A stretch of 64,000 bases of DNA, from the NCBI GenBank assembly GCA_029942545.1, contig GCA_029942545.1_4114.1; one strand, 5' to 3'. Shown in pieces: positions 6,342-62,261 of the stretch. Position numbers and translations under genes: made by a program. The notes under the pieces are model-generated. The model did not search any database. It was not told the origin of the DNA and saw only the letters and a program-made list of their open reading frames with translations. Each line of letters opens with the position of its first letter. The first letter of the stretch is position 1. The stretch is from a phage.

Positions 6342-6369
6342 GAATGCATACCAACACGGGGAAAACAAA

Positions 6370-6597: not shown

Positions 6598-6644
6598 TAG
6601 TAAAGTACTGTAATATAGTTTCATTAACTCAAGGAGTCAACACA

Positions 6645-13873: not shown

Positions 13874-13874
13874 C

Positions 13875-14114: not shown

Positions 14115-14137
14115 TATTGAAAATAAATGTGAGGTTG

Positions 14138-16372: not shown

Positions 16373-16584
16373 AGATAATATCAAACCAAGAGTACTTGGC
16401 ACTATTCAGGAAGAATAATCACAAATATATGGCACTTGATTCAAGAACTGATATAAGTGAACTTGAAAAAAATCTTTTGCGTTCAGATATGATAGTACTG
16501 ACACTCTTAGGAACACAGCATCAAGAGAGAACTGTTAATTCATACATAGGTATTCTTATACAGATAGTACAGGAAAAGATATGA
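16369..16584 (+). CDS. family A small paralog
   Basis: motif LGTQHQERTV; ATGA overlap. Confidence 0.65.
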   Translation: MKIISNQEYLALFRKNNHKYMALDSRTDISELEKNLLRSDMIVLTLLGTQHQERTVNSYIGILIQIVQEKI

Positions 16585-16802
16585 GAATCATAACACAACA
16601 AGATATTCTTAAGTTCACAAGGGTTCATGCATCTGAATTTGATGCTATATTATCAAAAAGTTACAACAACCCTTATACAGAAGATGTACACTACAATGAA
16701 TTATGGATGTATATACTTTTAGGTACAAATAAGCAAGAGCAAGCCGTACAGAAGTATTTGACAGCTTTACGTGATGCTACAGCTAATGGAGTATGTGTTT
16801 AA
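16581..16802 (+). CDS. family A small paralog
   Basis: motif LGTNKQEQAV; ATGA overlap. Confidence 0.65.
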   Translation: MRIITQQDILKFTRVHASEFDAILSKSYNNPYTEDVHYNELWMYILLGTNKQEQAVQKYLTALRDATANGVCV

Positions 16803-16803
16803 T

Positions 16804-17046
16804 ATGAAAGTACTGACAGAACTAGAAATGTATCATAGATTTAATAAGTACTATCATTTACTTAAACCTATACAGAGGATTAAGTGTCCCTTTGTAGTGA
16901 AACAGGTATTAATTTATGAGCATAAGTTATTTGTATCATTAGGTACGAATGAACAAGAGTATTATTTGAAGTTGTACTTGATTACATTAATAGATTTAAT
17001 TCACTATAAAACCAAACAAGCTAATAAAGAGAAATATGAAAACTAA
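16804..17046 (+). CDS. family A small paralog
   Basis: motif LGTNEQEYYL; ATG 16804 directly after upstream stop; track start 16771 is upstream. Confidence 0.6.
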   Translation: MKVLTELEMYHRFNKYYHLLKPIQRIKCPFVVKQVLIYEHKLFVSLGTNEQEYYLKLYLITLIDLIHYKTKQANKEKYEN

Positions 17047-17377
17047 TATTCAACTCAATGTATACAGTTCAGAAGAACATACATATATAAAATGCAGTCT
17101 ATGTAAAGATGTAATGGACTACAAGGGTAAGCCATTCACAATTACTTATGATTCTTATGTTAATGATTTATATATATCATTTCTTAATTACGAAAAGAAA
17201 ATATACAAGCACGTTGATATTAAAGATTTAAGTACTTTATCAGCAGAGGAATACTTTCAGGAATCGTTAGTATGGGATTTGGAGTTTCCTATGCCATTAG
17301 TACACAAAATGGTGGTCCTAATGAAAGAAGCTAAACCGGAGTTTAATGGTTATGAAGAACACATTATTGAGTACTGA
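17036..17377 (+). CDS. family B paralog (FQxS-motif protein)
   Basis: motif SAEEYFQESLVWD; first member of the array. Confidence 0.65.
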   Translation: MKTNIQLNVYSSEEHTYIKCSLCKDVMDYKGKPFTITYDSYVNDLYISFLNYEKKIYKHVDIKDLSTLSAEEYFQESLVWDLEFPMPLVHKMVVLMKEAKPEFNGYEEHIIEY

Positions 17378-17388
17378 TACAAATTATC

Positions 17389-17417
17389 TTGACAGTACGG
17401 TAAGGTAGTGCTATAGT
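17389..17417 (+). promoter_or_regulatory. sigma70-type promoter (TTGACA-N17-TATAGT)
   Basis: -35 17389-17394, -10 17412-17417. Confidence 0.55.
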
Positions 17418-17457
17418 ACTTTCACATTTAATGTACGTTCAATAAAGGGTAGATATT

Positions 17458-17703
17458 ATGTTAAATTTTTTAAATTTCCTTATCGTCTTGTGTATTGTTC
17501 TTGGAATTGCACCGTTTGTATTAGCGTATCTGGATTCAGATGAAATGCAGAAGATGAATTGCACAAAGACAGGACAGAGTAGAGAAGAGACGGTTATGAT
17601 GCCTGTAACGGTTATTGTGAATAACATACCAATTACGAACATGATTCCTACCCTAACGACAACGTACCAGTACTCTTGTGCAGACGGAGAGAGGTGGAGA
17701 TGA
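17458..17703 (+). CDS. small membrane protein (81 aa)
   Basis: hydrophobic N-terminus LNFLNFLIVLCIVLGIAPFVLAYL; own promoter. Confidence 0.55.
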   Translation: MLNFLNFLIVLCIVLGIAPFVLAYLDSDEMQKMNCTKTGQSREETVMMPVTVIVNNIPITNMIPTLTTTYQYSCADGERWR

Positions 17704-18020
17704 AATTTAATATAGCAAAAACATCTAATGTATGTATATTTGGTTATGCTGATGAGTTAGGTGATCTTGACATTCTATTGTACAAAAAGGATGGTGTTAT
17801 GCATTTCAAGTACCAGGATGAAGAGGCAGACAATTATCCTTTACCTAATTTAGTACAAATGCAGGAAGAGGAATTATTCCAGTACAGCTTAGTATATGAC
17901 ATTGATATTTGCACGATGCCAGTACTAATTAATATTCAAAAAGTGATGCTCGATGTGTTTGATAGGCTAATACAAGGCACACAAGGAAGAACCATATATG
18001 TCAATGTACAAGACAATTAA
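17700..18020 (+). CDS. family B paralog
   Basis: motif QEEELFQYSLVYD; ATG 17700 overlaps upstream stop (ATGA); track start 17676 is upstream. Confidence 0.6.
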   Translation: MKFNIAKTSNVCIFGYADELGDLDILLYKKDGVMHFKYQDEEADNYPLPNLVQMQEEELFQYSLVYDIDICTMPVLINIQKVMLDVFDRLIQGTQGRTIYVNVQDN

Positions 18021-18213
18021 TCAAGAATGGAAGACCCAAAAGTACAGGGAATTCAGTACTAGTTTAACAAAAGATGAATTGAATTTAAAAAGAACAGAGT
18101 TTGATATGTTTATTTTTCTTGGAACACGTTCACAGGAACAATACATTCATTATTATATAAGTTCATTGCGAACGGAGATCGTATGCAAAACACAGGGTAT
18201 TATAAAAAAGTAA
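17998..18213 (+). CDS. family A small paralog (interspersed in family B array)
   Basis: motif FLGTRSQEQYI. Confidence 0.6.
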   Translation: MSMYKTINQEWKTQKYREFSTSLTKDELNLKRTEFDMFIFLGTRSQEQYIHYYISSLRTEIVCKTQGIIKK

Positions 18214-18449
18214 ACCAATATTTGTACGCATCGAAGTACAGGGATTTTTGTTTAAAGGGTGGTGATGAAGATTTTTCTTTGCGATTATCAGAATTTAATC
18301 TGTTATTTTATCTTGGTACATCGGAACAAGAAGAAATGGCACAGAAATTTATCAAGCACCTTGAACAAAAAATTCATATGCAAATTTTGATGCTTAAGGT
18401 ACATAATGAGATAAACAAATATGAACCCAACAATAGTACAGGATCTTAA
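18183..18449 (+). CDS. family A small paralog (interspersed)
   Basis: motif YLGTSEQEEMA. Confidence 0.6.
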   Translation: MQNTGYYKKVNQYLYASKYRDFCLKGGDEDFSLRLSEFNLLFYLGTSEQEEMAQKFIKHLEQKIHMQILMLKVHNEINKYEPNNSTGS

Positions 18450-18810
18450 ACAAGTAATATTCCTTTTGAATACAAGAAGTGAAATGTATACAGAGTTTAA
18501 AGAGATTAATGCATTTTATCAGAATTTTGTAATTCAAGAGTTCAGTGATTTAATTACAGATGCATTATTTGAATTATCGGAAAAATACAAAGGAACAGAG
18601 TTCAGTGTTAAAAATGTATTACGTTCTTTATCAACGCGTATAATAAAATTAGATCATTTTACATTTGACAATAAAGATTTATTCAGTCACAATCCAAGTA
18701 CAGCTTTATATTTTATTCCTGATTCAGACAAAAATCATCCTATTCATTACGGATGGATTTTGTCGTACATAGTACAAGGAAAGGAGTATCCTATTAAATG
18801 GAACGATTAG
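18421..18810 (+). CDS. hypothetical protein (129 aa)
   Basis: ORF track; no family motif. Confidence 0.5.
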   Translation: MNPTIVQDLKQVIFLLNTRSEMYTEFKEINAFYQNFVIQEFSDLITDALFELSEKYKGTEFSVKNVLRSLSTRIIKLDHFTFDNKDLFSHNPSTALYFIPDSDKNHPIHYGWILSYIVQGKEYPIKWND

Positions 18811-29523: not shown

Positions 29524-29834
29524 AAAACTTATTCAGTGTTCAGTACGTTCCTGGTGAAATTGGTTTATTGTATCTATTTGACCATGATAATTCATTATTA
29601 CTAGTAGTGAAGAAATGCCAAGCTAGTTCGTTTGTTGAATACATTCACGATAGTGAATACATTCCTGATTTCCTAGAGTGTGATTATCACGATGAACATG
29701 AATCATTTATTTTTCAGGAATCACTAGTATGGGATAAATCGATCAACTTCTTTACGTTAATTGAATTACAAAAGCAGGTGAAGTATTATTGGGATTACTT
29801 AATTACACAGGATTACATTGAGATTGAAACATAA
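29520..29834 (+). CDS. family B paralog
   Basis: motif HESFIFQESLVWD. Confidence 0.65.
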   Translation: MKNLFSVQYVPGEIGLLYLFDHDNSLLLVVKKCQASSFVEYIHDSEYIPDFLECDYHDEHESFIFQESLVWDKSINFFTLIELQKQVKYYWDYLITQDYIEIET

Positions 29835-30142
29835 TGACAAAAAATGAATTTGATTCACTTTGTACGGTTTATAATTCATTGACAGAAATACCTGACTTTA
29901 TTAATTACGTTTCAGCTTTAAATCAAATTATGAATAGTTTTGAACAATCGTTTGAAGAGAAATATGCAGGTAGAAAAGTTCTATGTCATATGTCAATGTA
30001 CTTGGGAGATGGTGAGCCTTACACTACCAGTACTACATGTGAAATAAAAAAATATAATATATTATTGGGCACGATAGAATTCACAGTATCCAATGGTGGT
30101 AGTTATATGTACTTTAGAGATGGAGTGGTTGAATTATTATGA
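29834..30142 (+). CDS. hypothetical protein (102 aa)
   Basis: ORF track; no family motif. Confidence 0.5.
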   Translation: MTKNEFDSLCTVYNSLTEIPDFINYVSALNQIMNSFEQSFEEKYAGRKVLCHMSMYLGDGEPYTTSTTCEIKKYNILLGTIEFTVSNGGSYMYFRDGVVELL

Positions 30143-47337: not shown

Positions 47338-47724
47338 ATGAATACAAGTTCAATCCTAAAAGCAATTGGTGGTGTTTTACTCATTGAAGTAAAAGGTGAG
47401 CCAAAGCTATGCTGTTTAGAAGATATGAAGAATACAAAACACTTCAGTACTGGTCAGATTTTCAATGCCATTCGTATTCTAAATGACAAATCCATTGCTG
47501 ATTATGGTAAAGTTTGGCCTGTATATCAAAATGCTGATGGTGATATCAGTACTGATTGGAAAACAATTGAGGCGGTACGACAAAGTTGTGAGAGTGATTG
47601 GGACTTCATTGTTGAAGTTTGTGATCAACTACAAGAAGATGTTCCAGAAATTGTCGAACGAAAAGAAGTCCTAGCACGACTTGAAAAATTCCGTCACGGA
47701 ACACTACAGTATGACACAATCTAA
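47338..47724 (+). CDS. hypothetical protein (128 aa)
   Basis: ORF track; RBS GGAGA. Confidence 0.6.
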   Translation: MNTSSILKAIGGVLLIEVKGEPKLCCLEDMKNTKHFSTGQIFNAIRILNDKSIADYGKVWPVYQNADGDISTDWKTIEAVRQSCESDWDFIVEVCDQLQEDVPEIVERKEVLARLEKFRHGTLQYDTI

Positions 47725-49588: not shown

Positions 49589-50209
49589 ATGCGTAGCATG
49601 GTAATTCTACTGATGTTGATGAAATCAACGTCACGTATATTCATTGATGTTTCCATAGGAATAATGATGGCATTTATTAGAAAACAAAAAACTTTTACCT
49701 ATAAGACTTTGGATTTTGTTGATTGTGAAAACCAATTACAAGATGAAGATAACTTTACAGGATTTGTTGTTATTAAAGAAAAAGGATGCATTTCGTACAT
49801 AAAGGAATTACAGAACGGCATTGAAGTTACTTCAGTCAAATTACTTCCTACACAAAAACCAACAATATTAAAAGCACAGTATGGTAATTATTTCGAGGAA
49901 AGATATAGTAATAATTTAATAAGTGTTAAGGCTTATATTATAAAAGGAGAACTAGAAGGAGAATATAGAAAATACAACCCACAAGGAAAATGTGTTTGGG
50001 TTAAATACTTCAATTCAGGAAATGATGTAACATCTGAAATAATTGAGTTTTTAGGTTTAACATGTACCCCTGAAACTCTTCATGATTACAAATTTAATAC
50101 TGAAGAAGAGTTTAATCTGATGATGCGTTATGGTTCACATTTTAAATTTTTGTATGAATATAACATTGACAGTAGTACTTTTGATAAGATAGTACAGAAC
50201 TGTCTATAA
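49589..50209 (+). CDS. hypothetical protein (206 aa)
   Basis: ORF track; alternative start ATG 49664/49667 after AGGA; C-terminal region weakly repeat-like (GEYRKYNPQGKCVWVKYFNSGN). Confidence 0.5.
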   Translation: MRSMVILLMLMKSTSRIFIDVSIGIMMAFIRKQKTFTYKTLDFVDCENQLQDEDNFTGFVVIKEKGCISYIKELQNGIEVTSVKLLPTQKPTILKAQYGNYFEERYSNNLISVKAYIIKGELEGEYRKYNPQGKCVWVKYFNSGNDVTSEIIEFLGLTCTPETLHDYKFNTEEEFNLMMRYGSHFKFLYEYNIDSSTFDKIVQNCL

Positions 50210-50225
50210 CAAAAGGATTTATAAC

Positions 50226-50747
50226 ATGTCGAAGAAGGATACTTCGAACAAACATTCAGTACACTTCAGTACTGGTAAAGATAACTGGACAACTCCAAAA
50301 GATTTCTTTGAAGAGTTAGATGAGTTATGGGGATTTACGCTTGATGCTGCTTGTGTTGATGAGACTGCATTATGTGAGAATTATTTTACACCAAATGATG
50401 ATTCTCTTTCACAGGATTGGGGAAAGAATATAGTTTGGTTGAACCCTCCATATAGTGATTTGAAAACATGGTTATCTAAAGCAGTAGATGCGTATAATAA
50501 AGGGGCAACTGTATTAATTCTTGTACCATCAAGAACGGATACTATAGCTTTTCAGGATTATGCTGCGAAAGTTTGTGATTGTATTTGTTTTATTAAGGGA
50601 AGGTTACGATTTGGTATCCCAGAAGAACCAGAGAAGAAAACAGATTCAGCACCATTTCCTTCGTGTCTGATAGTACTAGATAAGTACTTAACCACTGCTA
50701 AAATCAATTATCTTAAATCTCTTGGATTGGTGATGAAGAATTTATGA
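50226..50747 (+). CDS. phage-type DNA N6-adenine methyltransferase
   Basis: WTTP ... FTLDAAC ... NYFT ... WLNPPYS, with NPPY catalytic motif; typical small phage MTase size. Confidence 0.75.
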   Translation: MSKKDTSNKHSVHFSTGKDNWTTPKDFFEELDELWGFTLDAACVDETALCENYFTPNDDSLSQDWGKNIVWLNPPYSDLKTWLSKAVDAYNKGATVLILVPSRTDTIAFQDYAAKVCDCICFIKGRLRFGIPEEPEKKTDSAPFPSCLIVLDKYLTTAKINYLKSLGLVMKNL

Positions 50748-51277
50748 AAGAAACATGTATATTATCATTTATGAGATGTAACCCAGTCCACAATGGTCAT
50801 GGTTTAGTTTTTGAAAAGGCCAAAACATTACAAGAACAGTACAATGCAGATTTGAAAATATATCTAAGCACCAGTACTGATAATATAAAAAACCCGCTTC
50901 CTCCTGAATTAAAGATGTATTACACTGAGGGTTTCTATCCTTCGGTTCAAGAAAACATTTATACTGAAGATAATCTTTTTGATATAATGCGTGAATTAGA
51001 TGGAAAATATTTAGATGTATTTTTTATATGTGGTTCAGACCGTATTGATTCTTTTCAGAAAACACTTGACAGTTACAATGGGAAGTTGTATAATTTTTGT
51101 AATATAAAAGCAATTCAAGCAGGTATTGACCGCCAATCAAGTCAATATAGCTCAACACAAATGCGTAACTTCGCAAAAAATGAAGATTTTGATAGTTTTC
51201 GTGAGTTTTTACCTGGAAATGACGAGGACTTAAAAATACAATTATTTGAAGACGTTATAAAATACATGAGGAAATAA
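50744..51277 (+). CDS. cytidylyltransferase-like nucleotidyltransferase (possible NMN adenylyltransferase)
   Basis: N-terminal FMRCNPVHNGH (HxGH class) and C-terminal SSTQMR (ISSTxIR-like); ATGA overlap with the methyltransferase. Confidence 0.6.
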   Translation: MKETCILSFMRCNPVHNGHGLVFEKAKTLQEQYNADLKIYLSTSTDNIKNPLPPELKMYYTEGFYPSVQENIYTEDNLFDIMRELDGKYLDVFFICGSDRIDSFQKTLDSYNGKLYNFCNIKAIQAGIDRQSSQYSSTQMRNFAKNEDFDSFREFLPGNDEDLKIQLFEDVIKYMRK

Positions 51278-51279
51278 TT

Positions 51280-51573
51280 ATGTCAGTACTGTTCAAAACC
51301 AATCCAGTACTTTGGGATCAAAATGAGCAATCAGGATTTCGTTCCATCCATGTTGAATACAAAGGTAATACTGTAGTTGCAATTATTGCTAACAAAACTC
51401 TAGGAAACTGGACTGCACAGGTTGTTCCTATGGGATATTCTTACACATCTGATGAGGTTCAATTCCTGGCTGAACTATATCGTCAAGTGCCGTTTATCAT
51501 TAATGTACTAGAAGGTAATGATACATTATCACATGCAGATGTGATTAATTTTCTTGGAAACTTGCATGTGTGA
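51280..51573 (+). CDS. hypothetical protein (97 aa)
   Basis: ORF track; RBS GAGGAAA. Confidence 0.55.
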   Translation: MSVLFKTNPVLWDQNEQSGFRSIHVEYKGNTVVAIIANKTLGNWTAQVVPMGYSYTSDEVQFLAELYRQVPFIINVLEGNDTLSHADVINFLGNLHV

Positions 51574-51853
51574 TGAAATAAATCTTACAGGATATTTTTT
51601 ACAAGAATCAATGATTAAATTTAGTGATAAATTTTCAGTACTGGATGGTATCGAAATGTGGCATGTAAAACCACTGTTCCACACTTTCAGTAAAGAGCAC
51701 AAAATGTTATTGACTGAAGCGAGTAAATCAAATAACATATGTGAAATCAAAATTGGTGTAAATGTCTATAAAGGGATGGTTATCTTTTTTGACAATAACA
51801 GCAACTACTTTTATATTGTTAAGGAGCATTACGTTGACAAATACAAATACTAA
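51566..51853 (+). CDS. hypothetical protein (95 aa)
   Basis: first in-frame ATG 51566; track start 51554 is TTG. Confidence 0.5.
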   Translation: MCDEINLTGYFLQESMIKFSDKFSVLDGIEMWHVKPLFHTFSKEHKMLLTEASKSNNICEIKIGVNVYKGMVIFFDNNSNYFYIVKEHYVDKYKY

Positions 51854-52448
51854 TACATACTTCCGTTATCTTCGCTTAGGTCTTTCCCTACGTCCGATCC
51901 GTGGAAAGTGCGATTCACTCGCTGACCTTGACTATGCATATGCATTACATCATGAAGGTGTACAGTATGTATTGGGTGATTATGGTGAATTTGAAGAAAC
52001 AAATGACAGTACTGGAATTAATGCTGGTGTAGAAAATCTTAACAACATTGCTAACAGTTCTCGCCATGACATTGTGTTACAGATTCAAAACTTTATTGAG
52101 CAACACACAGGCAAACGTGTTTGGTGCTATGTCGGTACTGATGCACAAATGTCAATTTCATTCGGTAACGATGAAGGATATGTTGCACAGCTTATTATGG
52201 ATTTTGAATCTGAAGAGAAGTTTTTAGAATTCAAAGAAAAGATTATTCAGTCACTTGTTGATATGGGTATCCCCGAAGATAAAATGCCAGAAGTCCAAAA
52301 CATTGATGAATTTGTTTTGATTCCATCTGATGAGAAATATGATGCAATGTTTACTGCTCTTAATATTCCAGGAGTTATTGTGGAGTACTTTGATGATGGT
52401 GATGATAGTATCTATATCGATCTAGATGACGATGACGACGATGAATAA
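51834..52448 (+). CDS. hypothetical acidic-tailed protein (204 aa), TTG start
   Basis: AAGGAG 51821-51826 is 7 nt before TTG 51834; C-terminal DDGDDSIYIDLDDDDDDE; track start 51762 overlaps upstream gene. Confidence 0.5.
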   Translation: MTNTNTNTYFRYLRLGLSLRPIRGKCDSLADLDYAYALHHEGVQYVLGDYGEFEETNDSTGINAGVENLNNIANSSRHDIVLQIQNFIEQHTGKRVWCYVGTDAQMSISFGNDEGYVAQLIMDFESEEKFLEFKEKIIQSLVDMGIPEDKMPEVQNIDEFVLIPSDEKYDAMFTALNIPGVIVEYFDDGDDSIYIDLDDDDDDE

Positions 52449-52494: not shown

Positions 52495-52770
52495 ATGAAT
52501 TATAAAGTTCTACAATATACATACAGTGTTTTGTTTGATTTACATCACAATGGAAGATATCTCAATACAATACGAGAAAACACATTCACTCATACTATCT
52601 GGATTAATCACTTAATAATGATACGTGAATATTTTGTTAATAGTGAGATAATCATTCGTGGTAAAAAACAGAAGATAGAACAAGTTAATAGTTTTGGTGG
52701 TAAATTAGTACTATCATTTATAGATAGTAATACTAATGAAAGATATAGTATAGATTTGGTGGACATATGA
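52495..52770 (+). CDS. family C small paralog
   Basis: N-terminal MNYKVLQYTYSVLFDL; tandem with similar ORFs. Confidence 0.55.
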   Translation: MNYKVLQYTYSVLFDLHHNGRYLNTIRENTFTHTIWINHLIMIREYFVNSEIIIRGKKQKIEQVNSFGGKLVLSFIDSNTNERYSIDLVDI

Positions 52771-53033
52771 ATTATAAAGATTTCCTACTAACATACAAGA
52801 TTATTCGAGATTTAGCACACGACAATGATAGCCCTAGTCTAGAAGACACATGCACTGAAATGATTCATACGATTCGTGGTAAGATTAAAAAAAAATTCAG
52901 TACTGTTATTATTGGTGATGACCATGCAGAATTTTCTGATATAATCATTAGACGTGATGGTAAAGTTGAGGTTCAGTACTACACTGATTTTGGATTTACC
53001 AGTATTCCGTTGGAGATATTCCCTTGGGATTAA
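52767..53033 (+). CDS. family C small paralog
   Basis: MNYKDFLLTYKIIRDL; ATGA overlap. Confidence 0.55.
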   Translation: MNYKDFLLTYKIIRDLAHDNDSPSLEDTCTEMIHTIRGKIKKKFSTVIIGDDHAEFSDIIIRRDGKVEVQYYTDFGFTSIPLEIFPWD

Positions 53034-53335
53034 ATTTAAATGATATACAATTCACTTATAAGATCCTATATGATTTGTATGATGTATACCTTGTTAGTAA
53101 CAACATAGGTTCACATAACCGATCCAAAGAACAACCATTTATTGATTTATATATTGAGTACTTAGATTCAGTAGGTGAATATATAAAAAAGAATTACAGT
53201 ACTTTTATCGATGGAAATGATAAATTCGATTTCTATGGTGTGCAATCATATAATGGTATAATCCATGTTCAATTTCAGGAAATAACCGATAGGGGATTTA
53301 TCGAGATTAAAGTTGTGAAGTTGGTGAATTTATAA
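53024..53335 (+). CDS. family C small paralog (TTG start?)
   Basis: NLNDIQFTYKILYDLYD; no in-frame ATG near the 5' end. Confidence 0.45.
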   Translation: MGLNLNDIQFTYKILYDLYDVYLVSNNIGSHNRSKEQPFIDLYIEYLDSVGEYIKKNYSTFIDGNDKFDFYGVQSYNGIIHVQFQEITDRGFIEIKVVKLVNL

Positions 53336-53345
53336 GAGGTTACAT

Positions 53346-53657
53346 ATGTTATTAAATGATATACAATTCACATACAAATTTTTGTATATCCAATACGCTA
53401 CGGTTGATGCTGGCGAATATCTCTACAGTGAAATCTATCGTTCGGTATGGATAAAGTTTTTGGATGAATTACATGAATATTACCATGATTTGTGTATAGT
53501 TCGTGATAATAAAATATACAAATTCCGCGATATTGTTAGTCATAGCGGTAAGCTACGATTGGAATTAAGTACTGATAGTGATGTTGATTGGATTGGTGTA
53601 AATTTACTGGAGTTGGAGAATGAAAAACAACTTAAAGGAAATACAAGTATTTTATAA
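53346..53657 (+). CDS. family C small paralog
   Basis: MLLNDIQFTYKFLYIQY. Confidence 0.55.
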   Translation: MLLNDIQFTYKFLYIQYATVDAGEYLYSEIYRSVWIKFLDELHEYYHDLCIVRDNKIYKFRDIVSHSGKLRLELSTDSDVDWIGVNLLELENEKQLKGNTSIL

Positions 53658-53904
53658 ATTCTTATACTTATCATATGTAAAAGATGAGTACTATGAAAGT
53701 GTGTATTATTTTTTATGGCAACATTACCGTACTATAGTAAGAGATTTATATATAGGAAAATCTATCATATCCAATGGTGAAAAATGTACCTGTACGGATG
53801 TAGTTAGTTTTAATGGTTCTTTAACACTGTGTTTCAGATGCGATAATAATAGTGGGTCATTTTCATTAAACGTATATCAGTTAGAAGGAATAAATTTTGA
53901 ATAA
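53620..53904 (+). CDS. family C small paralog
   Basis: LKEIQVFYKFLYLSY. Confidence 0.5.
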   Translation: MKNNLKEIQVFYKFLYLSYVKDEYYESVYYFLWQHYRTIVRDLYIGKSIISNGEKCTCTDVVSFNGSLTLCFRCDNNSGSFSLNVYQLEGINFE

Positions 53905-55078: not shown

Positions 55079-55136
55079 TTTAATTCATGATATAATAATG
55101 GGTAAGGAACAATAATTAACACAAGGAGTGTGTGAA

Positions 55137-55865
55137 ATGCTTGACCGTATCCGTTTCGCTACAGAGATGGCGAATGAATTAAACATGGCAAATTTCCAAA
55201 TGTTAACATCAGTAATGGCTGAACATGCATGTGCTTATTCTGTAAGTGGTGTGCAGTGTGGTCAGGAGAATATGTTAGCAGATGTTTATAGTGAAGTGCA
55301 AAGTAAGCAATATAGTGTAAAGACATATAAGGATAAGTTTGTTAGTCTTTATATGAACGAAGATATTGCCGAAGACCGTAAATTCACTGATTTTATTATT
55401 GAACGACGAGTATCAGGTGTATCTAATCCTAATGCATCAAGCGAGGAAGTTTTTGCAGAAGTACTGAAAGATATATACGAAAATGAATTAAAAAGTAAGA
55501 ATCATTACAATGTACGTGAAACTAACACAGTGCTCTTGGGATATGATGAAGACGAAGAATACTATTATTTTCGTATGACTGAAGTTCCTTTTGAATACAA
55601 ATCTCCATATACAACTACAGTGAAAGAATTTACTGAAAAAAGTAAAAACTTCATGAAGCATGAAGGAAATCGTTGTAGTATAAATGGTTATGACGAAAAT
55701 GGCATTCACATTTATGAATGGGTTCACCCAAATTGTCAGACATACACTCGTTGCTTGAAAAAACGTTATAATTTAGAAGAGCATGAATCATTCTATTTTA
55801 AAGTTAAGAAGCAAGGTTATACTCGCCCCGCCGATTCTGAATTGATGGGTATGATATATTTCTAA
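55137..55865 (+). CDS. hypothetical protein (242 aa)
   Basis: RBS AAGGAG 55123-55128 before ATG 55137; track start 55128 is GTG. Confidence 0.6.
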   Translation: MLDRIRFATEMANELNMANFQMLTSVMAEHACAYSVSGVQCGQENMLADVYSEVQSKQYSVKTYKDKFVSLYMNEDIAEDRKFTDFIIERRVSGVSNPNASSEEVFAEVLKDIYENELKSKNHYNVRETNTVLLGYDEDEEYYYFRMTEVPFEYKSPYTTTVKEFTEKSKNFMKHEGNRCSINGYDENGIHIYEWVHPNCQTYTRCLKKRYNLEEHESFYFKVKKQGYTRPADSELMGMIYF

Positions 55866-56157: not shown

Positions 56158-56164
56158 ATTCTTA

Positions 56165-56188
56165 GGCCAGCGTTTGCTGGTCTTTTTT
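56165..56188 (+). terminator. intrinsic terminator
   Basis: GGCCAGC-GTTT-GCTGGTC followed by T6. Confidence 0.75.
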
Positions 56189-56201: not shown

Positions 56202-56504
56202 ATGTTCAGTATAGATTTAATTAACAGTACTATCAAAATGTTGGCTGATTTGGTGAGACAATCCAATGGAACTTTATATCCATCAATGTATAAAATGTTT
56301 GACCGATACATCAAGGATTGTAACATATCATTATATGGACTTGCTGTTGATATAGACGATTACTATGGAATTAATACTTCATATAAAACAGGAATTTTAA
56401 TTGGTATTAATATAAAGATGGGGTATTTACCTTATTACTGTATAGGATTACCAGATAATACTTTTGTAGAATATCCAGCCAGTACTATTAAATTAAGAGG
56501 ATAA
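56202..56504 (+). CDS. hypothetical protein (100 aa)
   Basis: ORF track. Confidence 0.5.
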   Translation: MFSIDLINSTIKMLADLVRQSNGTLYPSMYKMFDRYIKDCNISLYGLAVDIDDYYGINTSYKTGILIGINIKMGYLPYYCIGLPDNTFVEYPASTIKLRG

Positions 56505-56511
56505 AACTAAA

Positions 56512-57090
56512 ATGAATGTATTAGAATTAAGTACTAAGCTGATTAGTATGCGTAATGAGTGGTACGATTGGTTTTATAATGGTACTGATATGGATTTTTC
56601 AAAATATCCATTTATGGAATCAGGATGTGATGCAAGATACCGCTGGTTGAGCAAAGATTGTTCTGGTTTACATATTCTAGTTGACGATAGTGGTCAGGGA
56701 ATTATAAAAGATTTACTTCAAGTTGAACAACTCGTCCATGATAATTGGTGTGATAACGATCCATACCTTGGAAATATGATTTATGTAAGTGAAGATGATT
56801 GCATATTCGTTATCCAGCGTCATGGTAATTCTATGTTTTATGTAGCAGATAGCAGTACTCCAGAAGGTGCAGCAGCCGATGGACTTATGCCTAAGATTGA
56901 TATATTGGAATTTGGATTACCTGAGCACTTCCAGATTAGTACTTTATACGATATTCCACCACTTGAGTTCTTTGAAGAATTTAAATTGTACTACAATGAT
57001 CTTCAAAAATTGAGTACTGATCGACGCATTGAAATAACTGTTAAGTACATGGACGGAACGAAATTAACTGATACGGGGATAGAATTTTGA
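56512..57090 (+). CDS. family B paralog (outlying copy)
   Basis: motif LPEHFQISTLYD; RBS AAGAGG. Confidence 0.6.
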   Translation: MNVLELSTKLISMRNEWYDWFYNGTDMDFSKYPFMESGCDARYRWLSKDCSGLHILVDDSGQGIIKDLLQVEQLVHDNWCDNDPYLGNMIYVSEDDCIFVIQRHGNSMFYVADSSTPEGAAADGLMPKIDILEFGLPEHFQISTLYDIPPLEFFEEFKLYYNDLQKLSTDRRIEITVKYMDGTKLTDTGIEF

Positions 57091-57776
57091 TTAAAGATTT
57101 AGATAGAATTTTATATGTACTAAGGGGTGTAATTACATTACATCCACAAATCAATCGAATTGAAAGTACATTTCAGTTGGAGTCAAGAGAAACTCCATAT
57201 TCACATATATCAAATGTAGTTGGTTCACTCAGTACTGAAGACTCGTCTTACGATATTTGTGTATGTGAAGTACAACCAAGTTCGGATCTTGGATTTGCTA
57301 TTTTTGATAAAGATCAAAATCTCATTAGTATGTTTCAGTGCAATAATCCTTTTTGGAAAACATGCCTGTATCCAGAGTGGGCTATGCTTGATCCAACCAA
57401 GAGTACCATTAAAGTTTATGACTCTAAAAATGATGAAGTCGTTATTGATTTGGATGAGTCAATGTCAGAGGAAGAACACTTTCAGCTAATGATGATGCGT
57501 GCTATGCCGGAATACAATGCAATGATTAACACTGTGCAATACATTAAGGATACCATGCCAGCGTTGCGTACACATGAGTTTTGTCATCCGGTATTGTATG
57601 AACATCTAGATTTAGACTTCAGTACTATTAAATTTAAAGATAGTGTTAAAAAATATATTCAAGAGAATGTTAAATTTGATTTTATTAGTACTATGAACAA
57701 TAATCCAAAAACTAATTTTAGGCATCAGTACAATGAATCTTTGTCTAATGGACGTGATACCAGTTGGTGGAAATAA
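57087..57776 (+). CDS. family B paralog (outlying copy, TTG start?)
   Basis: motif SEEEHFQLMMMRA; only start candidate is TTG 57087 overlapping upstream stop. Confidence 0.5.
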   Translation: MIKDLDRILYVLRGVITLHPQINRIESTFQLESRETPYSHISNVVGSLSTEDSSYDICVCEVQPSSDLGFAIFDKDQNLISMFQCNNPFWKTCLYPEWAMLDPTKSTIKVYDSKNDEVVIDLDESMSEEEHFQLMMMRAMPEYNAMINTVQYIKDTMPALRTHEFCHPVLYEHLDLDFSTIKFKDSVKKYIQENVKFDFISTMNNNPKTNFRHQYNESLSNGRDTSWWK

Positions 57777-57777
57777 T

Positions 57778-58041
57778 ATGAATATTCAAGATAGATTACA
57801 ATTACTGTACACACTTGAACAGGCTGCTTATGATCTTGTTCGAAAAATCTCAGATGAACTACCTAAAGGAACTAAAGTTCGTGTACGTGAGATGAATTAT
57901 TTTTCTGGAGTAATTGAAGAACAAGTACTAACAGTGAATAAAGTAACATACTATGAATCTGAGTTGTCTATTCAGTGTGAATCTGATGATGGATTAATAT
58001 CATATTATGGAACTGATGTAGATATAGAGGTAATAAAATGA
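57778..58041 (+). CDS. family D small paralog (GK-x-V-R motif)
   Basis: LPKGTKVRVREMNYFSG; ATG 57778; track start 57733 is upstream. Confidence 0.5.
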   Translation: MNIQDRLQLLYTLEQAAYDLVRKISDELPKGTKVRVREMNYFSGVIEEQVLTVNKVTYYESELSIQCESDDGLISYYGTDVDIEVIK

Positions 58042-59180
58042 CCCTTTTGCAAATATATGAAGATTTAATGCACTTATGTAATACAAACGATGCATTCTTT
58101 TATGTGGATCATAAAAGTCCTGCTGGTGGCACGTATCGTGTATTCAGTTATCGTCTAGCATCATACACTGATTTCATGCAACCAAATGCGTTGGAAACCC
58201 GTGGCTCTATGTGGGAAATTGATGAAGAAGGTGAAATGATACGTTGTGCAGCACGTACAATGAAAAAGTTCTTCAATGCTTACGAGAATCCTGCTACAAT
58301 GTTCCCTGCTAACACCACATGCGATGACATTGCGGTAGTGATGCCTAAGTTGGATGGTTCGATTATCAGTACTTACCGTGATAATGATGGTGAGATTCGT
58401 TGTAAATCACATACTGCATTGTATTCTGACCATGCGATTAACAGTACTCGACTTATTAACGAGAACCAGAATTTGTATCAGTACATCGACGAAGCGGAAC
58501 GTTTAGGTTACACAGTTAATATGGAGTATACAAGCCCAGAGTACCGAATTGTATTACCATATCAGGTAGAACAACTGTTTGTACTGAACGTTCGTCATCG
58601 TGTGAGTGGTGAGTTGCTATGTGGTAAAGCACTACGTGATAAGTTTCCATGTCTTGCACAGTACAGTACTAATATGACTGGAAAAGATATTCATCACACT
58701 TTTCCGGTACGAAATACCTTCCGTGAAAGCGTGGAGGAAGTTCATAAAATGCTTGATATTGAGGGTTTTGTGTGCATCCTAAATAATGGGACAATGTGTA
58801 AAATAAAGACTGACTGGTACAGTTCATTACATCTTACAAAAGATAGTATTATTATTGATTCTCATTTATATGAAGCAGTATTAAATGGTTCAAGTGATGA
58901 TTTAAAACAATTGTTCAGTACTGATGAATATGCTATGCAAAAGATATTAAGAATGGAACAATTGGTATTTTCGTGCTATAATGCATTACAAGATGAAGTA
59001 GAAAGCTTCGTCAAGGAACACAAGCACTTGGAGCGAAAGGAATTCGCAATGAAGGTTCAGGAGTGTTTAACTAATGAACTGAATCGTCAGGGCTTGGCCT
59101 TTGCAATGTATAACAATAAGAAAGTTGATTACAAAGAGACTCTTATAAAATACATGAAAATTGTACTAAAGGATTTTTAG
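58038..59180 (+). CDS. rnlA: RNA ligase 1 (T4 RnlA-like)
   Basis: 380 aa; N-terminus and nucleotidyltransferase lysine motif VMPKLDGS align with T4 Rnl1 as recalled (from memory, no search); conserved C-terminal WYSSLH-like region. Confidence 0.85.
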   Translation: MTLLQIYEDLMHLCNTNDAFFYVDHKSPAGGTYRVFSYRLASYTDFMQPNALETRGSMWEIDEEGEMIRCAARTMKKFFNAYENPATMFPANTTCDDIAVVMPKLDGSIISTYRDNDGEIRCKSHTALYSDHAINSTRLINENQNLYQYIDEAERLGYTVNMEYTSPEYRIVLPYQVEQLFVLNVRHRVSGELLCGKALRDKFPCLAQYSTNMTGKDIHHTFPVRNTFRESVEEVHKMLDIEGFVCILNNGTMCKIKTDWYSSLHLTKDSIIIDSHLYEAVLNGSSDDLKQLFSTDEYAMQKILRMEQLVFSCYNALQDEVESFVKEHKHLERKEFAMKVQECLTNELNRQGLAFAMYNNKKVDYKETLIKYMKIVLKDF

Positions 59181-59210
59181 TACTATCTAGCCTAAGCACA
59201 AGGAGAAGTG

Positions 59211-59465
59211 ATGGCTAAACCTAAGTATAAAAATGACGGTTCCCTTTCTCCGACTGAGTTCAGGAAAATACAAGAAGAAATCGATGAATTACAGCACAAA
59301 CGCTCAATGAAAGGTGTGAAGATAAGTAAGAAACGAATCGAGAATACCTTCGGATGTAGTAGTACTGAATACAAGAAGAAAAGGAAACCAAAAGGTGTTA
59401 AGCCGAGAATACATGATGTAACTCGCTATACATCGAAACGTGAAAATAAATTTGACCCACTATAA
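59211..59465 (+). CDS. small basic protein (84 aa)
   Basis: RBS AAGGAG before ATG 59211; K/R-rich. Confidence 0.55.
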   Translation: MAKPKYKNDGSLSPTEFRKIQEEIDELQHKRSMKGVKISKKRIENTFGCSSTEYKKKRKPKGVKPRIHDVTRYTSKRENKFDPL

Positions 59466-59474
59466 GGAGTTCAT

Positions 59475-59711
59475 ATGAAAGTTGAAGTTCAGCATAGTAT
59501 TGTTCAGGATATGTCAGTAGTTAAATTTCTTTCCTTGAAAGATTATTTCAGATGTATCAAGTTCCTAGAAGAATCTCAATTACAGTGGACCCCATTAAAG
59601 TACAGTTCATCCAATGATACTGCTAGTATTCGTTGTGATGAATCTGTACTTGTGAAAATCTCCAAGCGATTTGGAGTTGGGAAATATAATGATAAACAAT
59701 GCACAAAGTAA
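59475..59711 (+). CDS. hypothetical protein (78 aa)
   Basis: ORF track; RBS AAGGAG. Confidence 0.55.
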   Translation: MKVEVQHSIVQDMSVVKFLSLKDYFRCIKFLEESQLQWTPLKYSSSNDTASIRCDESVLVKISKRFGVGKYNDKQCTK

Positions 59712-60000
59712 TTTACTATATATAAAGTCAGTAGAAGCTGAAATTAAAAATTCAGTACAAACTATCGTCGATGAAATGATTGACAAATACAAGAGCAATC
59801 TTATTGGGAAGAAAGTCAGATGTTGGGATTACACATTTAAACACTGGTACGATTCCGAGATTGTGAAAGTTGATGTGAATACTGATAGTAATGGTCTAAT
59901 TAATGGTATTGCGTATATTGGTGTTTTAATACGAAAGGGAACACCACAGGAATGGCTCACCTATCATAATATAGAGCATGTTAAATTTTTAGAGGATTAA
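59689..60000 (+). CDS. family D small paralog
   Basis: LIGKKVRCWDYTFKHWYD; ATG 59689. Confidence 0.5.
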   Translation: MINNAQSNLLYIKSVEAEIKNSVQTIVDEMIDKYKSNLIGKKVRCWDYTFKHWYDSEIVKVDVNTDSNGLINGIAYIGVLIRKGTPQEWLTYHNIEHVKFLED

Positions 60001-60003
60001 AGG

Positions 60004-60936
60004 ATGCCAACTATCACACTAACAGTTGGATTGCCTGGGTGTGGTAAAACTACATGGGCAGTGCAAGAGATTAAAAAAGCCAAATCCAAGACTATCAACA
60101 TCAACCGTGATGATATTCGTGAATCTATGGCTGGGTCACATGATGCTTACAAATTCAACGATGCTAATGAGCAGTACGTAGATAATTTACAGTTCAGTGC
60201 AGCAAATTCAGCAGCAGAGAATGGTTGGAACATCATAGTATCCGATACAAACCTTAAACCACATTTCCGTAATCTCTGGAAAGTATGGGCTACAGATAAT
60301 GGTTATGATTACAAAGAAAAGAACTTCTATGATGATTTTGTACCTAATGAAGACCGTGGTGCAGATGTTCATGAATTCTTTAAGATTAAAGAGTTCGTAA
60401 AACTTTGTAAGAAATATAACCTCCAGCGTGAGCGTTCAGTACCAGATGATATCATTGACAAAATGGCAGATACGTACTATTATAGTAAAGCATTACACAT
60501 TGGTTACTATGGTAATTCACGCGAAGCTGCTATCATCGTTGATATCGATGGAACTCTTGCTCATAAATGGGGTCGTAATCCTTACGATGAAAGTACTGTT
60601 CTTCAGGATACACCTGATGAAGAAGTTATTTTGTCTATTATCGCTGAAGCAGTTTTTCATAAACGCAAGATTATCGTCATGAGTGGGCGTACTGAAGGGT
60701 GTCGTGCGGATACCGAACAGTGGCTTAAGAATTGGGGTGTTCCTTACGATGCATTGTTTATGCGAGATATCGATGATAAACGTCCTGATGATGTTGTAAA
60801 ATTCGACCTGTACATGAAAAATGTGGTTGATCATTACGATGTTAAAAAGGTATATGATGACCGCGATCAAGTTGTATTCATGTGGCGTAAGCTACTTGGG
60901 TTGAAAGTTTTCCAAGTGGCTGAAGGAAATTTCTAA
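60004..60936 (+). CDS. pnk: polynucleotide 5'-kinase / 3'-phosphatase (T4 Pnk-like)
   Basis: N-terminal P-loop GLPGCGKTT; C-terminal phosphatase motif VDIDGTLA (DxDGT); 310 aa; directly downstream of RNA ligase. Confidence 0.85.
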   Translation: MPTITLTVGLPGCGKTTWAVQEIKKAKSKTININRDDIRESMAGSHDAYKFNDANEQYVDNLQFSAANSAAENGWNIIVSDTNLKPHFRNLWKVWATDNGYDYKEKNFYDDFVPNEDRGADVHEFFKIKEFVKLCKKYNLQRERSVPDDIIDKMADTYYYSKALHIGYYGNSREAAIIVDIDGTLAHKWGRNPYDESTVLQDTPDEEVILSIIAEAVFHKRKIIVMSGRTEGCRADTEQWLKNWGVPYDALFMRDIDDKRPDDVVKFDLYMKNVVDHYDVKKVYDDRDQVVFMWRKLLGLKVFQVAEGNF

Positions 60937-60940
60937 TACA

Positions 60941-60967
60941 AAAGGGATCATATATTGGTCCCTTTTT
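60941..60967 (+). terminator. intrinsic terminator
   Basis: AAAGGGATCA-TATAT-TGGTCCCTTT with T-rich tail. Confidence 0.75.
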
Positions 60968-61003: not shown

Positions 61004-61162
61004 ATGTTATTACAAAAAGACTACTTAGAAAATATAGAACGATACTATAGATTGTCTTTGTATGAAAATAAGCATAAAAATTATAGTTTTGATAAACTAC
61101 TAAATTCCAGTACTGATGATTATCTATTTTCATCAATGTTTTATGTGAGAGGTTTATTATAA
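61004..61162 (+). CDS. small hypothetical protein (52 aa)
   Basis: ATG 61004; stop overlaps next start (TAATG); below track cutoff. Confidence 0.3.
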   Translation: MLLQKDYLENIERYYRLSLYENKHKNYSFDKLLNSSTDDYLFSSMFYVRGLL

Positions 61163-61422
61163 TGGATAAATTTCACACAGATATAACACAGATAGGTAAT
61201 CTTATCAATAGTCTAATTACTGATTTAGAAGAAAAGTACTTAGGTCGAAATGTATACGTAGAAATGTATGAAACATATGGTGTTATTGATATGATTTATT
61301 ACAGTGCATTGAAGTGTGAAATACGTTTAACAGTATGTTTGTTTGAAAAAAATACATTCAACAGAAGTACTGCAATTCGCCAAGTTGGAGTTGATGATAT
61401 AGAATTATACGAGGAACAATGA
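61162..61422 (+). CDS. family D small paralog
   Basis: LEEKYLGRNVYVEMYETYG. Confidence 0.5.
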   Translation: MDKFHTDITQIGNLINSLITDLEEKYLGRNVYVEMYETYGVIDMIYYSALKCEIRLTVCLFEKNTFNRSTAIRQVGVDDIELYEEQ

Positions 61423-61673
61423 TGTTTGAGCAGGACTTAGAGATATTCAAAAGTCATATTGATTACTTGACTATATTAGAAAATGATTTAACTACAAAGT
61501 ACAAAGGCATTCGTGTTCTGTGCTGGTATGATGATTGGGATTATAAACGTGAACTCACGATTGATCGAATTTATTTCAGTGACGGTGTACTAAATGTACA
61601 TGGTGTAAATGATTTTGGTCATTCATATACATATTCTAATAATGCTAAATTTAAAAGGATCTACAATGAATGA
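61419..61673 (+). CDS. family D small paralog
   Basis: LTTKYKGIRVLCWYDDWDY; ATGA overlap. Confidence 0.5.
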   Translation: MMFEQDLEIFKSHIDYLTILENDLTTKYKGIRVLCWYDDWDYKRELTIDRIYFSDGVLNVHGVNDFGHSYTYSNNAKFKRIYNE

Positions 61674-61968
61674 ATATTATCATAATTTATTCGATTACAT
61701 AAAACTAATAGATGATCTTTCTTTTGAATTTCTCAGTACTGAAAAAGTTCTTGAACCTCTCTATTATGATTGTATTAGTTCACTATGTTTAGATGAAAAA
61801 GAGATATTAGCAAACAACTTACCATCCACGGTCTGTACAATCAATGGTTCCAAGGCTTTAGTGTGCGAGGTTAATTTTCATAAATCACTTAATACAATTG
61901 TTTACAAGTTCGATAACACTTGGGTAAATCATGTAACCAGTAATATTAAATCTGTGAGATTTTTATGA
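61666..61968 (+). CDS. hypothetical protein (100 aa)
   Basis: ATG 61666 (MNEYYHNLF); track start 61609 is upstream. Confidence 0.5.
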   Translation: MNEYYHNLFDYIKLIDDLSFEFLSTEKVLEPLYYDCISSLCLDEKEILANNLPSTVCTINGSKALVCEVNFHKSLNTIVYKFDNTWVNHVTSNIKSVRFL

Positions 61969-62261
61969 ATATAAAAAAATTATTTGAACAAGTAAATTTA
62001 TTGTACTGGTGTTCAGACGGGTCAGATAAAGAAAATAGTGAAGCTTTTTTAGAATTATTCAGAAATGAAATACACATAATTAGAAGATACTTAATTGATA
62101 ATAAAACTGAAGTAAAAGTTAGATACCATAATGGTACTTTAAAGAATGGTGTAATTATTGGATTGATAGTTACACGAATGTCTAATAATATTAAAGTTGC
62201 AGTTAGATTAATGACTGATGATGGTGTCTACACAATAGAAGCTAGTGAGATTATATATTAA
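61965..62261 (+). CDS. family D-like small paralog
   Basis: NKTEVKVRYHNGTLKNGVIIG; ATGA overlap. Confidence 0.5.
   Translation: MNIKKLFEQVNLLYWCSDGSDKENSEAFLELFRNEIHIIRRYLIDNKTEVKVRYHNGTLKNGVIIGLIVTRMSNNIKVAVRLMTDDGVYTIEASEIIY

Follow-up and report, generated by a model that had tools for sequence, protein, structure and literature searches.

A probable T4-type RNA repair cassette in an Asteriusvirus jumbo coliphage, with two small genes retained between its enzymes

Results

The DNA analysed here (the window) is a stretch of 64,000 nucleotides from an Asteriusvirus jumbo coliphage of the PBECO4/phAPEC6 type. At 58038..59180 on the + strand it encodes Rnl1, a 380-aa ATP-dependent RNA ligase of the T4 RnlA family, and at 60004..60936, on the same strand, Pnk, a 310-aa bifunctional 5'-kinase/3'-phosphatase; both assignments derive from family matches and catalytic residues. 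An earlier note on this DNA had placed the two enzymes at these positions, 0.8 kb apart with three small ORFs in between, and the two reading frames were found to be exact to the base, with a measured gap of 823 bp containing three ORFs of the same orientation. The first of these, orfA (59211..59465), encodes 84 aa from its ATG, is preceded by an AAGGAG ribosome-binding site and specifies a very basic product (pI 10.1). It is followed by orfB (59475..59711; 78 aa), also with an AAGGAG site, a conserved and lineage-restricted member of the cassette, and by orfC (59689..60000; 103 aa from its ATG), which encodes an acidic protein, overlaps the end of orfB by 23 nt and sits between orfB and Pnk in a slot of highly variable content. 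Further upstream lies p245 (55128..55865, + strand; 245 aa), a conserved gene linked to the others by synteny only.

The ATG of Rnl1 overlaps the stop codon of the upstream ORF (ATGA) and has a GAGG 7 nt upstream. Directly after the Pnk stop codon there is a terminator-like hairpin with a U-tract, of the intrinsic type (60940..60966, + strand), with an 11-bp stem and a folding energy of -14.4 kcal/mol (z = -3.8). As the G17 record carries an annotated terminator at the matching position, the end of the transcription unit is probably marked by this hairpin. A resembling hairpin was found upstream, at 56164-56183 (z = -3.5); therefore, the region 56202-60936 may constitute a single transcription unit, and p245 would belong to the preceding one if the 56164 hairpin acts as a terminator. 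Matches to sigma-70-like promoters were not enriched (42 observed vs 52 expected). Neither tRNA genes nor genes related to nucleases, which could have hinted at a target, are present in the window, and no Rfam families were found in its 54-64 kb portion.

The earlier note had described the ligase as Rnl1-type, an identity that stands above curated family thresholds: the protein scored 293.2 bits against the NCBIfam equivalog TIGR02308 (cutoff 242.25) and matched Pfam RNA_lig_T4_1 (1e-15), PHROG 562 (3.5e-109) and, strongly, the solved structure of T4 Rnl1, 2c5u (1.1e-56). It comprises an adenylyltransferase domain (residues ~55-261) followed by a C-terminal helical domain (~268-379), the latter matching Pfam PF20819, T4_Rnl1_C (6.6e-17; residues 268-379, profile positions 1-113 of 122). 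This T4-type domain is conserved and includes invariant positions; in T4 Rnl1 it confers specificity for the tRNA anticodon loop (PMC6379707). The KxDG lysine, for which an active-site alignment had been proposed, is present as K104-L-D106-G107-S108, aligned to T4 K99-E-D-G-S (K104, D106 and G107 corresponding to T4 K99, D101 and G102), and the motif is invariant in 28/28 homologues; K104 is thus the predicted AMP-accepting residue. In the N-terminal subdomain, R55, K77 and F79 align with the ATP-contacting T4 residues R54, K75 and F77 (for the functions of R54 and K75, see PMC6379707), and in motifs III-V, E163, E242, G243, K255 and K257 align with T4 E159, E227, G228, K240 and K242. All these catalytic residues are invariant across the 28 sequences except for F79, whose column holds phenylalanine in 27 and tyrosine in one. 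The gene is under purifying selection, with a dN/dS of 0.06 relative to fEgEco12.

One active-site position departs from T4. The motif Ia lysine, T4 K119, is replaced by H125 in the window Rnl1, and the corresponding column of the 28 sequences contains K in 16, H in nine and N in three; within the part of the alignment to which the window lineage belongs, all 12 sequences have H or N. The adjoining K123 (T4 K117) is invariant in the family alignment. K119 of T4 Rnl1 is said to have been found essential by Wang, Ho, Pei and Shuman in 2003. Because the substitution is clade-wide, H125 is probably tolerated.

Pnk likewise passed the curated family thresholds, in agreement with the bifunctional identity proposed for it: it matched Pfam HAD_PNKP (7.9e-44; 149.7 bits, cutoff 27.6), AAA_33 (2.9e-13) and PHROG 505 (2.8e-96), together with a strong match to the T4 Pnk structure 1ltq (9.2e-41). 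A P-loop kinase domain (residues ~1-160) precedes a HAD 3'-phosphatase domain (~175-310). Both signatures whose presence was to be checked were recovered: the P-loop, of the GxxGxGK[ST] type, reads G9-LPGCGK15-T16, and the DxDGT nucleophile motif reads D180-I-D182-G-T, its aspartates aligning with the T4 catalytic residues. On the kinase side, K15, T16, D36 and R39 align with T4 K15, S16, D35 and R38; on the phosphatase side, D180, D182, R191, S227, R229, D262, K266 and D285-D286 correspond to T4 D165, D167, R176, S211, R213, D254, K258 and D277-D278. Most of these residues are invariant in an alignment of five sequences including T4 and three jumbo-phage Pnks. In the lid, the columns of the T4 ATP-binding arginines R122 and R126 hold K137 and Q141, and a [Y/R/W]xxxR motif (Y138...R142) appears one residue later than T4 R122...R126, just after a clade-specific insertion of ~20 aa. 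The shift of the lid arginine (T4 R126, like K119 a position regarded as essential in T4) was seen throughout the clade, and R142 is invariant in 4/4 jumbo-phage Pnks. With a dN/dS of 0.14, Pnk is also under purifying selection.

The gene order Rnl1-orfA-(X)-orfB-(variable)-Pnk is found in Eneladusvirus, GAP32, Alcyoneusvirus and two metagenomic lineages, and a third metagenomic lineage (L011) keeps the order of the cassette without a detectable orfB. Roughly 70 genomes in all contain the cassette. Among the six distant cassette loci examined, in which Rnl1 identity falls to ~46%, orfA adjoins Rnl1 in every one (in a shortened form in L014) and orfB is present in five. Flanking genes turn over from one of these loci to another, and orfA and orfB persist; neither was ever found apart from Rnl1 and Pnk in the loci examined. 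The conservation of orfB exceeds that of the two enzymes themselves, and the dN/dS of orfA was 0.03. For the orfB product a beta-beta-alpha-beta-beta-alpha fold was predicted with confidence; it gave generic ACT/ferredoxin-like matches only (Z <= 6.4) and no PDB match by sequence. The orfA product is possibly a nucleic-acid-binding protein, since it is basic. No fold or domain ties either protein to RNA. An iterated search linked orfB to a family of ~40 paralogues at 17-45 kb, a link that we attribute to profile drift, as orfB scored 4.2 bits (E = 0.45) against a profile of that family built without it. No similarity was found between orfA, orfB or orfC and T4 alc or pseT.1-3.

Close relatives differ sharply in the slot between orfB and Pnk, which holds from zero to three ORFs depending on the phage. 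Despite flanks of 98-99% identity, orfC is exchanged in G17 for a homologue of 34% identity plus an extra ORF of 84 aa, and Salmonella phage SD-2_S15 has lost it in a clean deletion. At this place phiKp_21 has three unrelated ORFs. No homologue of orfC was found in L004, L005 or L006 and no match in Pfam; its family has just three members, the window gene, G17_2951 and, in L014, an ORF that precedes Rnl1. A visual impression that orfC and neighbouring ORFs of ~90 aa are paralogues sharing a beta-rich 'G-K-x-V' domain was supported neither by BLAST nor by iterated HMM searches. The suggestion that the small ORFs are accessory candidates can be refined: orfA and orfB are the two that different genera selectively retain along with the enzymes. 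In contrast, orfC is swappable cargo in a replacement hotspot and does not belong to the constant portion of the cassette, close relatives having no copy, a substitute or several ORFs in its place.

As for p245, all cassette-bearing relatives examined (L004, L005, L006, L011, L012 and L014; E 1e-79 to 1e-109) have it on the upstream side of Rnl1, and the genes separating the two are not conserved among these relatives. It had no match in Pfam, NCBIfam, PADLOC or the PDB, and its identification as RlaP or DenA was rejected by hhalign.

Discussion

The closest known counterpart of this locus is the rnlA (gp63)/pseT pair of T4, which counters the anticodon nuclease PrrC. The window enzymes belong to the same two families, with 39% identity each; their catalytic residues match those of T4, the C-terminal domain of Rnl1 is present, and the order and orientation rnlA-small genes-pseT are the same. 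In contrast, the genes between the T4 enzymes are alc, pseT.3, pseT.2 and pseT.1, to which orfA, orfB and orfC are unrelated. The enzymes differ in motif Ia of Rnl1, which reads SK in T4 and SH in the window, and in the lid arginine of Pnk, shifted here by one residue after the insertion of ~20 aa.

What the analysis shows is that the proteins belong to these families, that their active sites are conserved and that they are under purifying selection, together with the synteny and phyletic pattern of the cassette. A ligase and an end-healing enzyme are encoded in one genome, and their linkage is conserved across genera. We propose, with a probability of roughly 0.8, that the locus is an RNA repair cassette of the T4 'heal-and-seal' type. 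Its enzymatic activities, tRNA substrate and counter-defence role would be those of the T4 orthologues, for which tRNA repair as a means of countering defence is established (Amitsur et al. 1987, cited in PMC12409363 and PMC11494293, where the T4 mechanism is also described). A tRNA cut by a host anticodon nuclease would be left with a 2',3'-cyclic phosphate on one side of the break and a 5'-OH on the other. In Pnk, the HAD domain, with D180 as nucleophile, would take off the 3' or cyclic phosphate, and the P-loop kinase domain (K15) would phosphorylate the 5'-OH. Rnl1 would then adenylylate itself on K104, pass the AMP to the 5'-phosphate and seal the anticodon loop; the preference for tRNA would come from the C-terminal helical domain of Rnl1. 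The genes would be the last of an early-type transcription unit, with the 60940-60966 terminator closing it. In this phage lineage both enzymes are inherited as a cassette together with orfA and orfB, and unrelated small genes are gained and lost in the slot between orfB and Pnk.

The place of orfA and orfB in this scheme is less clear-cut, and we see an even chance that they are unrelated early genes without a role in RNA repair, kept between the enzymes by inherited gene order. All cassette-bearing phages belong to one lineage, so that the co-conservation of the two genes is confounded with shared ancestry; T4 harbors unrelated genes (alc and the spanin-like pseT.2 and pseT.3) at the equivalent position; and the absence of orfB from L011, the shortened orfA of L014 and the lack of a fold or domain connecting either protein to RNA all fit this view. 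Against it, small neighbours turn over freely at equal evolutionary distances and these two nevertheless persist, always in the company of Rnl1 and Pnk in the loci examined, orfB being better conserved than the enzymes. We regard as rather doubtful the stronger idea that jumbo phages of the RaK2/Asteriusvirus type have a repair system of their own with at least four components, to which orfA, orfB and perhaps p245 are dedicated; for example, orfA would recruit broken tRNA and orfB would link Rnl1 to Pnk, regulate the two or inhibit the host nuclease. If it were true, the slot between orfB and Pnk would be a hotspot exchanging anti-defence cargo genes.

With respect to the substrate, Pnk and Rnl1 might instead heal and seal broken RNA in general, with no particular tie to anticodon nucleases: they could mend phage or host RNAs cut by toxin-antitoxin RNases, by Cas13 collateral cleavage or by colicins, or help to process RNA of the phage itself. 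The end chemistry that they handle is common to many metal-independent RNases, the window shows no specific target, and PMC7824862 makes a case for a specialisation of different ligases for different RNase effectors; still, the conservation of the T4-type C-terminal domain, with its anticodon-loop specificity in T4 (PMC6379707), points to tRNA, and we consider this alternative unlikely. It overlaps heavily with tRNA repair, the substrate being the sole difference between them. T4 gp63 has a dual role, as RNA ligase and as tail-fibre attachment catalyst, so RNA repair need not be the only or the main function of Rnl1. That Rnl1 acts mainly in virion assembly, attaching the elaborate fibres, with RNA repair secondary or absent, is nonetheless improbable: the label 'tail fiber protein attachment catalyst' on PHROG 562 and several GenBank records, like the dual function noted in the T4 record, speaks for it, but the label was transferred from T4, Rnl1 sits in an early-type region of small genes and not among structural genes, its tight and conserved linkage to Pnk ties it to end-healing, and a purely chaperone-like role would need neither the strong purifying selection nor the invariance of the nucleotidyl-transfer residues (nearly so for F79).

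In bacteria, an RNA repair complex is composed of Pnkp1, Rnl and Hen1. The window Pnk matches Pnkp1 (PDB 4xrp/4xru) over its full length (1.7e-31), and in both systems the kinase-phosphatase and the ligase are separate polypeptides encoded together; unlike the bacterial complex, the window has no Hen1-like 2'-O-methyltransferase. The label '2'-O-MTase' carried by the fEgEco12 homologue of window 61965-62261 belongs to a product of 98 aa with no methyltransferase match, and the fEgEco12 label 'transcriptional regulator' was also unsupported. The immediate surroundings of the window cassette yielded no RlaP nucleotidyltransferase, RtcB, 2H or cRec component. A more distant Rnl1 locus (L013) contains RlaP and a second ligase.

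The Rnl1 and Pnk pair is correctly identified, already known and ordinary, since GenBank records of 99.4% identity to the window annotate both genes and repair by Rnl1 and Pnk-HAD in jumbo phages has been surveyed by Iyer, Anantharaman, Krishnan, Burroughs and Aravind (2021; PMC7824862). The window cassette falls exactly in a class of that survey: an ATP-grasp Rnl1 with a kinase-HAD phosphatase fusion in a phage of >300 kb. The phAPEC6 record annotates all five CDS (Rnl1, orfA, orfB, orfC and Pnk) likewise; in the papers on phAPEC6 and fEgEco12, neither the Rnl1 and Pnk genes nor rescue from anticodon nucleases is taken up. The sole new detail is the retention of orfA and orfB, two tiny genes between the enzymes, in several phage genera; neither they nor the p245 neighbour are described in the accessible part of the survey.

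In summary, our work brings a modest gain, defining a conserved core of Rnl1, orfA, orfB and Pnk, with p245 nearby, and a delimited variable slot. It offers experimenters two short conserved genes as candidates in RNA repair and a natural series of phages with zero, one, two or three ORFs between orfB and Pnk that is open to comparison. The pair of enzymes is the textbook phage response to abortive-infection systems that cut tRNA. A widely isolated group of jumbo coliphages thus probably tolerates nucleases leaving cyclic-phosphate and 5'-OH ends, a property already implicit in public annotations and of interest to those working on phage therapy and phage defence.

Identity of the ligase and kinase genes

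The window belongs to an Asteriusvirus jumbo coliphage, and its 5-kb region shares 99.0-99.4% identity with phages BF17, SHEFM2K, phAPEC6 and PBECO4, whose GenBank records already carry the labels 'RNA ligase (1)' and 'polynucleotide kinase'; the module was thus known and annotated before. An earlier note on this DNA had placed Rnl1, a T4 RnlA-family RNA ligase, at 58038-59180 (+ strand, 380 aa) and Pnk, a polynucleotide kinase/HAD phosphatase, at 60004-60936 (+, 310 aa), and these coordinates were exact. The 823 bp gap between these same-strand genes holds three small ORFs: orfA (59211-59465, +, 84 aa) and orfB (59475-59711, +, 78 aa), each with an AAGGAG ribosome-binding site, and orfC (59689-60000, +, 103 aa from its ATG). 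Rnl1 starts at an ATG that overlaps the stop of the ORF before it.

The proposed identities of both enzymes were upheld by Pfam, PHROG and T4 structure matches, and that of Rnl1 also by an NCBIfam equivalog. Rnl1 matched RNA_lig_T4_1 and T4_Rnl1_C in Pfam, PHROG 562 (3.5e-109) and the solved T4 Rnl1 structure (1e-56), and exceeded the TIGR02308 cutoff (293 bits vs 242). Pnk matched HAD_PNKP (150 bits) and AAA_33, PHROG 505 (2.8e-96), T4 Pnk (1ltq, 9e-41) and bacterial Pnkp1 (4xrp, 2e-31). The active-site residues that the earlier note had proposed to check against T4 were all present. In Rnl1 the AMP-accepting lysine is K104, within K-L-D-G-S, and T4 residues R54, K75, F77, G102, E159, E227, G228, K240 and K242 have identical counterparts, invariant in a 28-sequence family alignment except that one sequence has Y for F79. 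Pnk conserves the kinase P-loop (G9...K15-T16), D36 and R39, together with the phosphatase residues D180-x-D182-G-T, R191, R229, D262 and D285-D286.

In the alignment, two positions depart from T4. T4 K119, a motif Ia residue reported to be essential in that phage, corresponds to H125 in the window; this column holds K in 16 sequences, H in nine and N in three, and is H or N in all 12 sequences of the window lineage's part of the alignment. As the neighboring K123 is invariant in the family and Rnl1 is under strong purifying selection (dN/dS = 0.06), H125 is best read as a clade-wide substitution and not as decay. In Pnk, the ATP-lid arginines R122 and R126 of T4 align with K137 and Q141; one residue after these columns, all four jumbo-phage Pnks examined carry [Y/R/W]-x-x-x-R (Y138...R142, with R142 invariant), immediately preceded by a clade-specific insertion of ~20 aa; the R126 arginine may be shifted and not lost.

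Proposed role in RNA repair

Homologues of Rnl1 and Pnk occur in 1,587 and 2,072 phage records, respectively, and a published comparative survey of 224 jumbo phages treats Rnl1 with a kinase-HAD Pnk as a standard way for these phages to repair RNA (PMC7824862). In T4, tRNA-Lys is cut by PrrC; Pnk takes off the cyclic phosphate and adds a phosphate to the 5'-OH, after which Rnl1 seals the break (PMC11494293, PMC12409363). Specificity for the anticodon loop is ascribed to the C-domain of Rnl1 (PMC6379707). Together, these reports make the counter-defence role proposed in the earlier note the accepted reading of both families. As the papers on phAPEC6 and fEgEco12 leave both genes unexamined, this role is predicted from homology for the window phage.

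The gene order and orientation are those of T4 (rnlA, alc, pseT.3, pseT.2, pseT.1, pseT), although the intervening T4 genes lack similarity to orfA, orfB and orfC. Beside the cassette we found neither a Hen1-like methyltransferase nor RlaP, nor any further component of repair; the label 'SAM-dependent 2'-O-MTase domain-containing protein' on the fEgEco12 homologue of window 61965-62261 was unsupported by Pfam and PDB sequence searches. No tRNA genes were found in the window and no Rfam families in 54-64 kb; one relative encodes six tRNAs at other sites of the genome, for Ser, Met, Asn and Thr, with tRNA-Lys not among them.

Genomic surroundings

Two stable hairpins with U-tracts, at 56164-56183 (z = -3.5) and 60940-60966 (z = -3.8), bracket 56202-60936; the latter directly follows the Pnk stop, where a terminator is annotated in G17. 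Just 3' of Pnk, the ORFs 61162-61422 and 61419-61673 each have one clear far-upstream paralogue by HMM search (29834-30142 and 47338-47724, respectively). The window also has large tandem arrays of small paralogous genes: a ~70-aa ORF in about 30 copies (11000-18500), a set of about 40 ORFs, related to one another and 100-200 aa long (17000-45500), and five paralogues (52495-53904). PBECO4 annotates every one of the 110 genes in its matching 50 kb as hypothetical. Among the five genes of a block conserved across genera (49589-52448) are those of a Dam-family DNA adenine methyltransferase (50226-50747, Pfam 5.9e-32) and of a cytidylyltransferase-like protein (50744-51277, PHROG 3041).

A conserved core and a variable slot

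Rnl1 neighborhoods were taken from increasingly distant relatives, six of which bear the cassette: Erwinia phage pEa_SNUABM_49 (L004, Eneladusvirus; Rnl1 59.5% identical to the window), Cronobacter phage GAP32 (L005, 58%), Klebsiella phage phiKp_21 (L014, Alcyoneusvirus; phmmer E 1e-164, the strongest match among the six) and the metagenomic contigs L006, L011 and L012 (46-49%). In all six, an orfA homologue directly follows Rnl1 (shortened in L014), Pnk lies downstream and a ~245-aa gene lies upstream; an orfB homologue sits between the enzymes in five, none being detected in L011. Other genes within ~6 kb were unconserved at these distances. In GAP32, the gene of a 365-aa protein that carries a Pfam Gad2 domain (L005 3438-4535) lies ~1.5 kb upstream of Rnl1; a counterpart was not detected in window 48-64 kb. 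At ~41% Rnl1 identity (L007, L013), both the adjacent Pnk and every companion gene were absent; metagenomic L013 has a different repair-gene combination, in which Rnl1 is accompanied by another RNA ligase (PF09414) and by an RlaP nucleotidyltransferase (307-1281 and 6277-6906).

The small ORFs had been put forward as accessory candidates, a proposal that fits orfA and orfB, co-conserved with the enzymes, but not the variable orfC, which is replaced or deleted. OrfB identity reaches 64-76% in genera whose Rnl1 is just ~58-60% identical; orfB was found by tblastn in 71 phage records, those listed as full genomes all being jumbo phages of 310-386 kb, and when 1.84 billion representative proteins were searched exhaustively with its profile, only three clusters were significant. 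OrfA, present in 62 records, is very basic in all lineages (pI 10.1-10.4) and has a low-confidence predicted fold of three helices; a search for structural and sequence neighbors found none. A helix-turn-helix reading of its conserved NTFGxSST segment was unsupported, and the Alcyoneusvirus homologue lacks this segment. That orfA and orfB are selectively conserved along with the enzymes suggests that they may be accessory to repair, a pattern that common ancestry confounds.

The slot between orfB and Pnk (window 59693-60003; L008 2694-3277; L009 about 2690; L014 5210-5977) is a replacement hotspot, flanked within Asteriusvirus by DNA that is otherwise 98-99% identical, and holds 0, 1, 2 or 3 small ORFs, unrelated or highly diverged, depending on the phage. 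In G17/121Q-type phages a homologue of 34% identity and one additional ORF stand in place of orfC, Salmonella phage SD-2_S15 has orfC cleanly deleted, and in L014 three other small ORFs fill the slot, the sole orfC relative there lying upstream of Rnl1. The label 'transcriptional regulator' given to the orfC homologue of fEgEco12 (window 59689-60000) was unsupported by Pfam and PDB sequence searches. A further small ORF, absent from the window, lies between orfA and orfB in the non-Asteriusvirus loci other than L014; its homology is HMM-significant only in L004 and L005, and for L006, L011 and L012 was assigned by visual inspection. Synonymous divergence from fEgEco12 across 57778-60936 is mosaic (0.71 in the ORF preceding Rnl1, 0.58 in Rnl1 itself, 0.18 in orfA, about 0.05 in both orfB and orfC, 0.17 in Pnk), which implies recombination breakpoints inside the cassette.

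The upstream gene (p245, 55128-55865, PHROG 16105) recurs with E values of 1e-79 to 1e-109 in all six relatives, among which the genes between it and Rnl1 turn over. Its product matched nothing in Pfam, NCBIfam, PADLOC or PDB and is distinct from both RlaP and DenA. Numerous polar positions in it are invariant, and its D49...S60-V-K62...E89 pattern resembles that of a PD-(D/E)xK nuclease, which makes this at most a candidate assignment.

In summary, our analysis adds a minor but testable refinement to an already annotated module: Rnl1, orfA, orfB and Pnk form a conserved core, with a cargo slot of changing content and, upstream, a constant neighbor of 245 aa.
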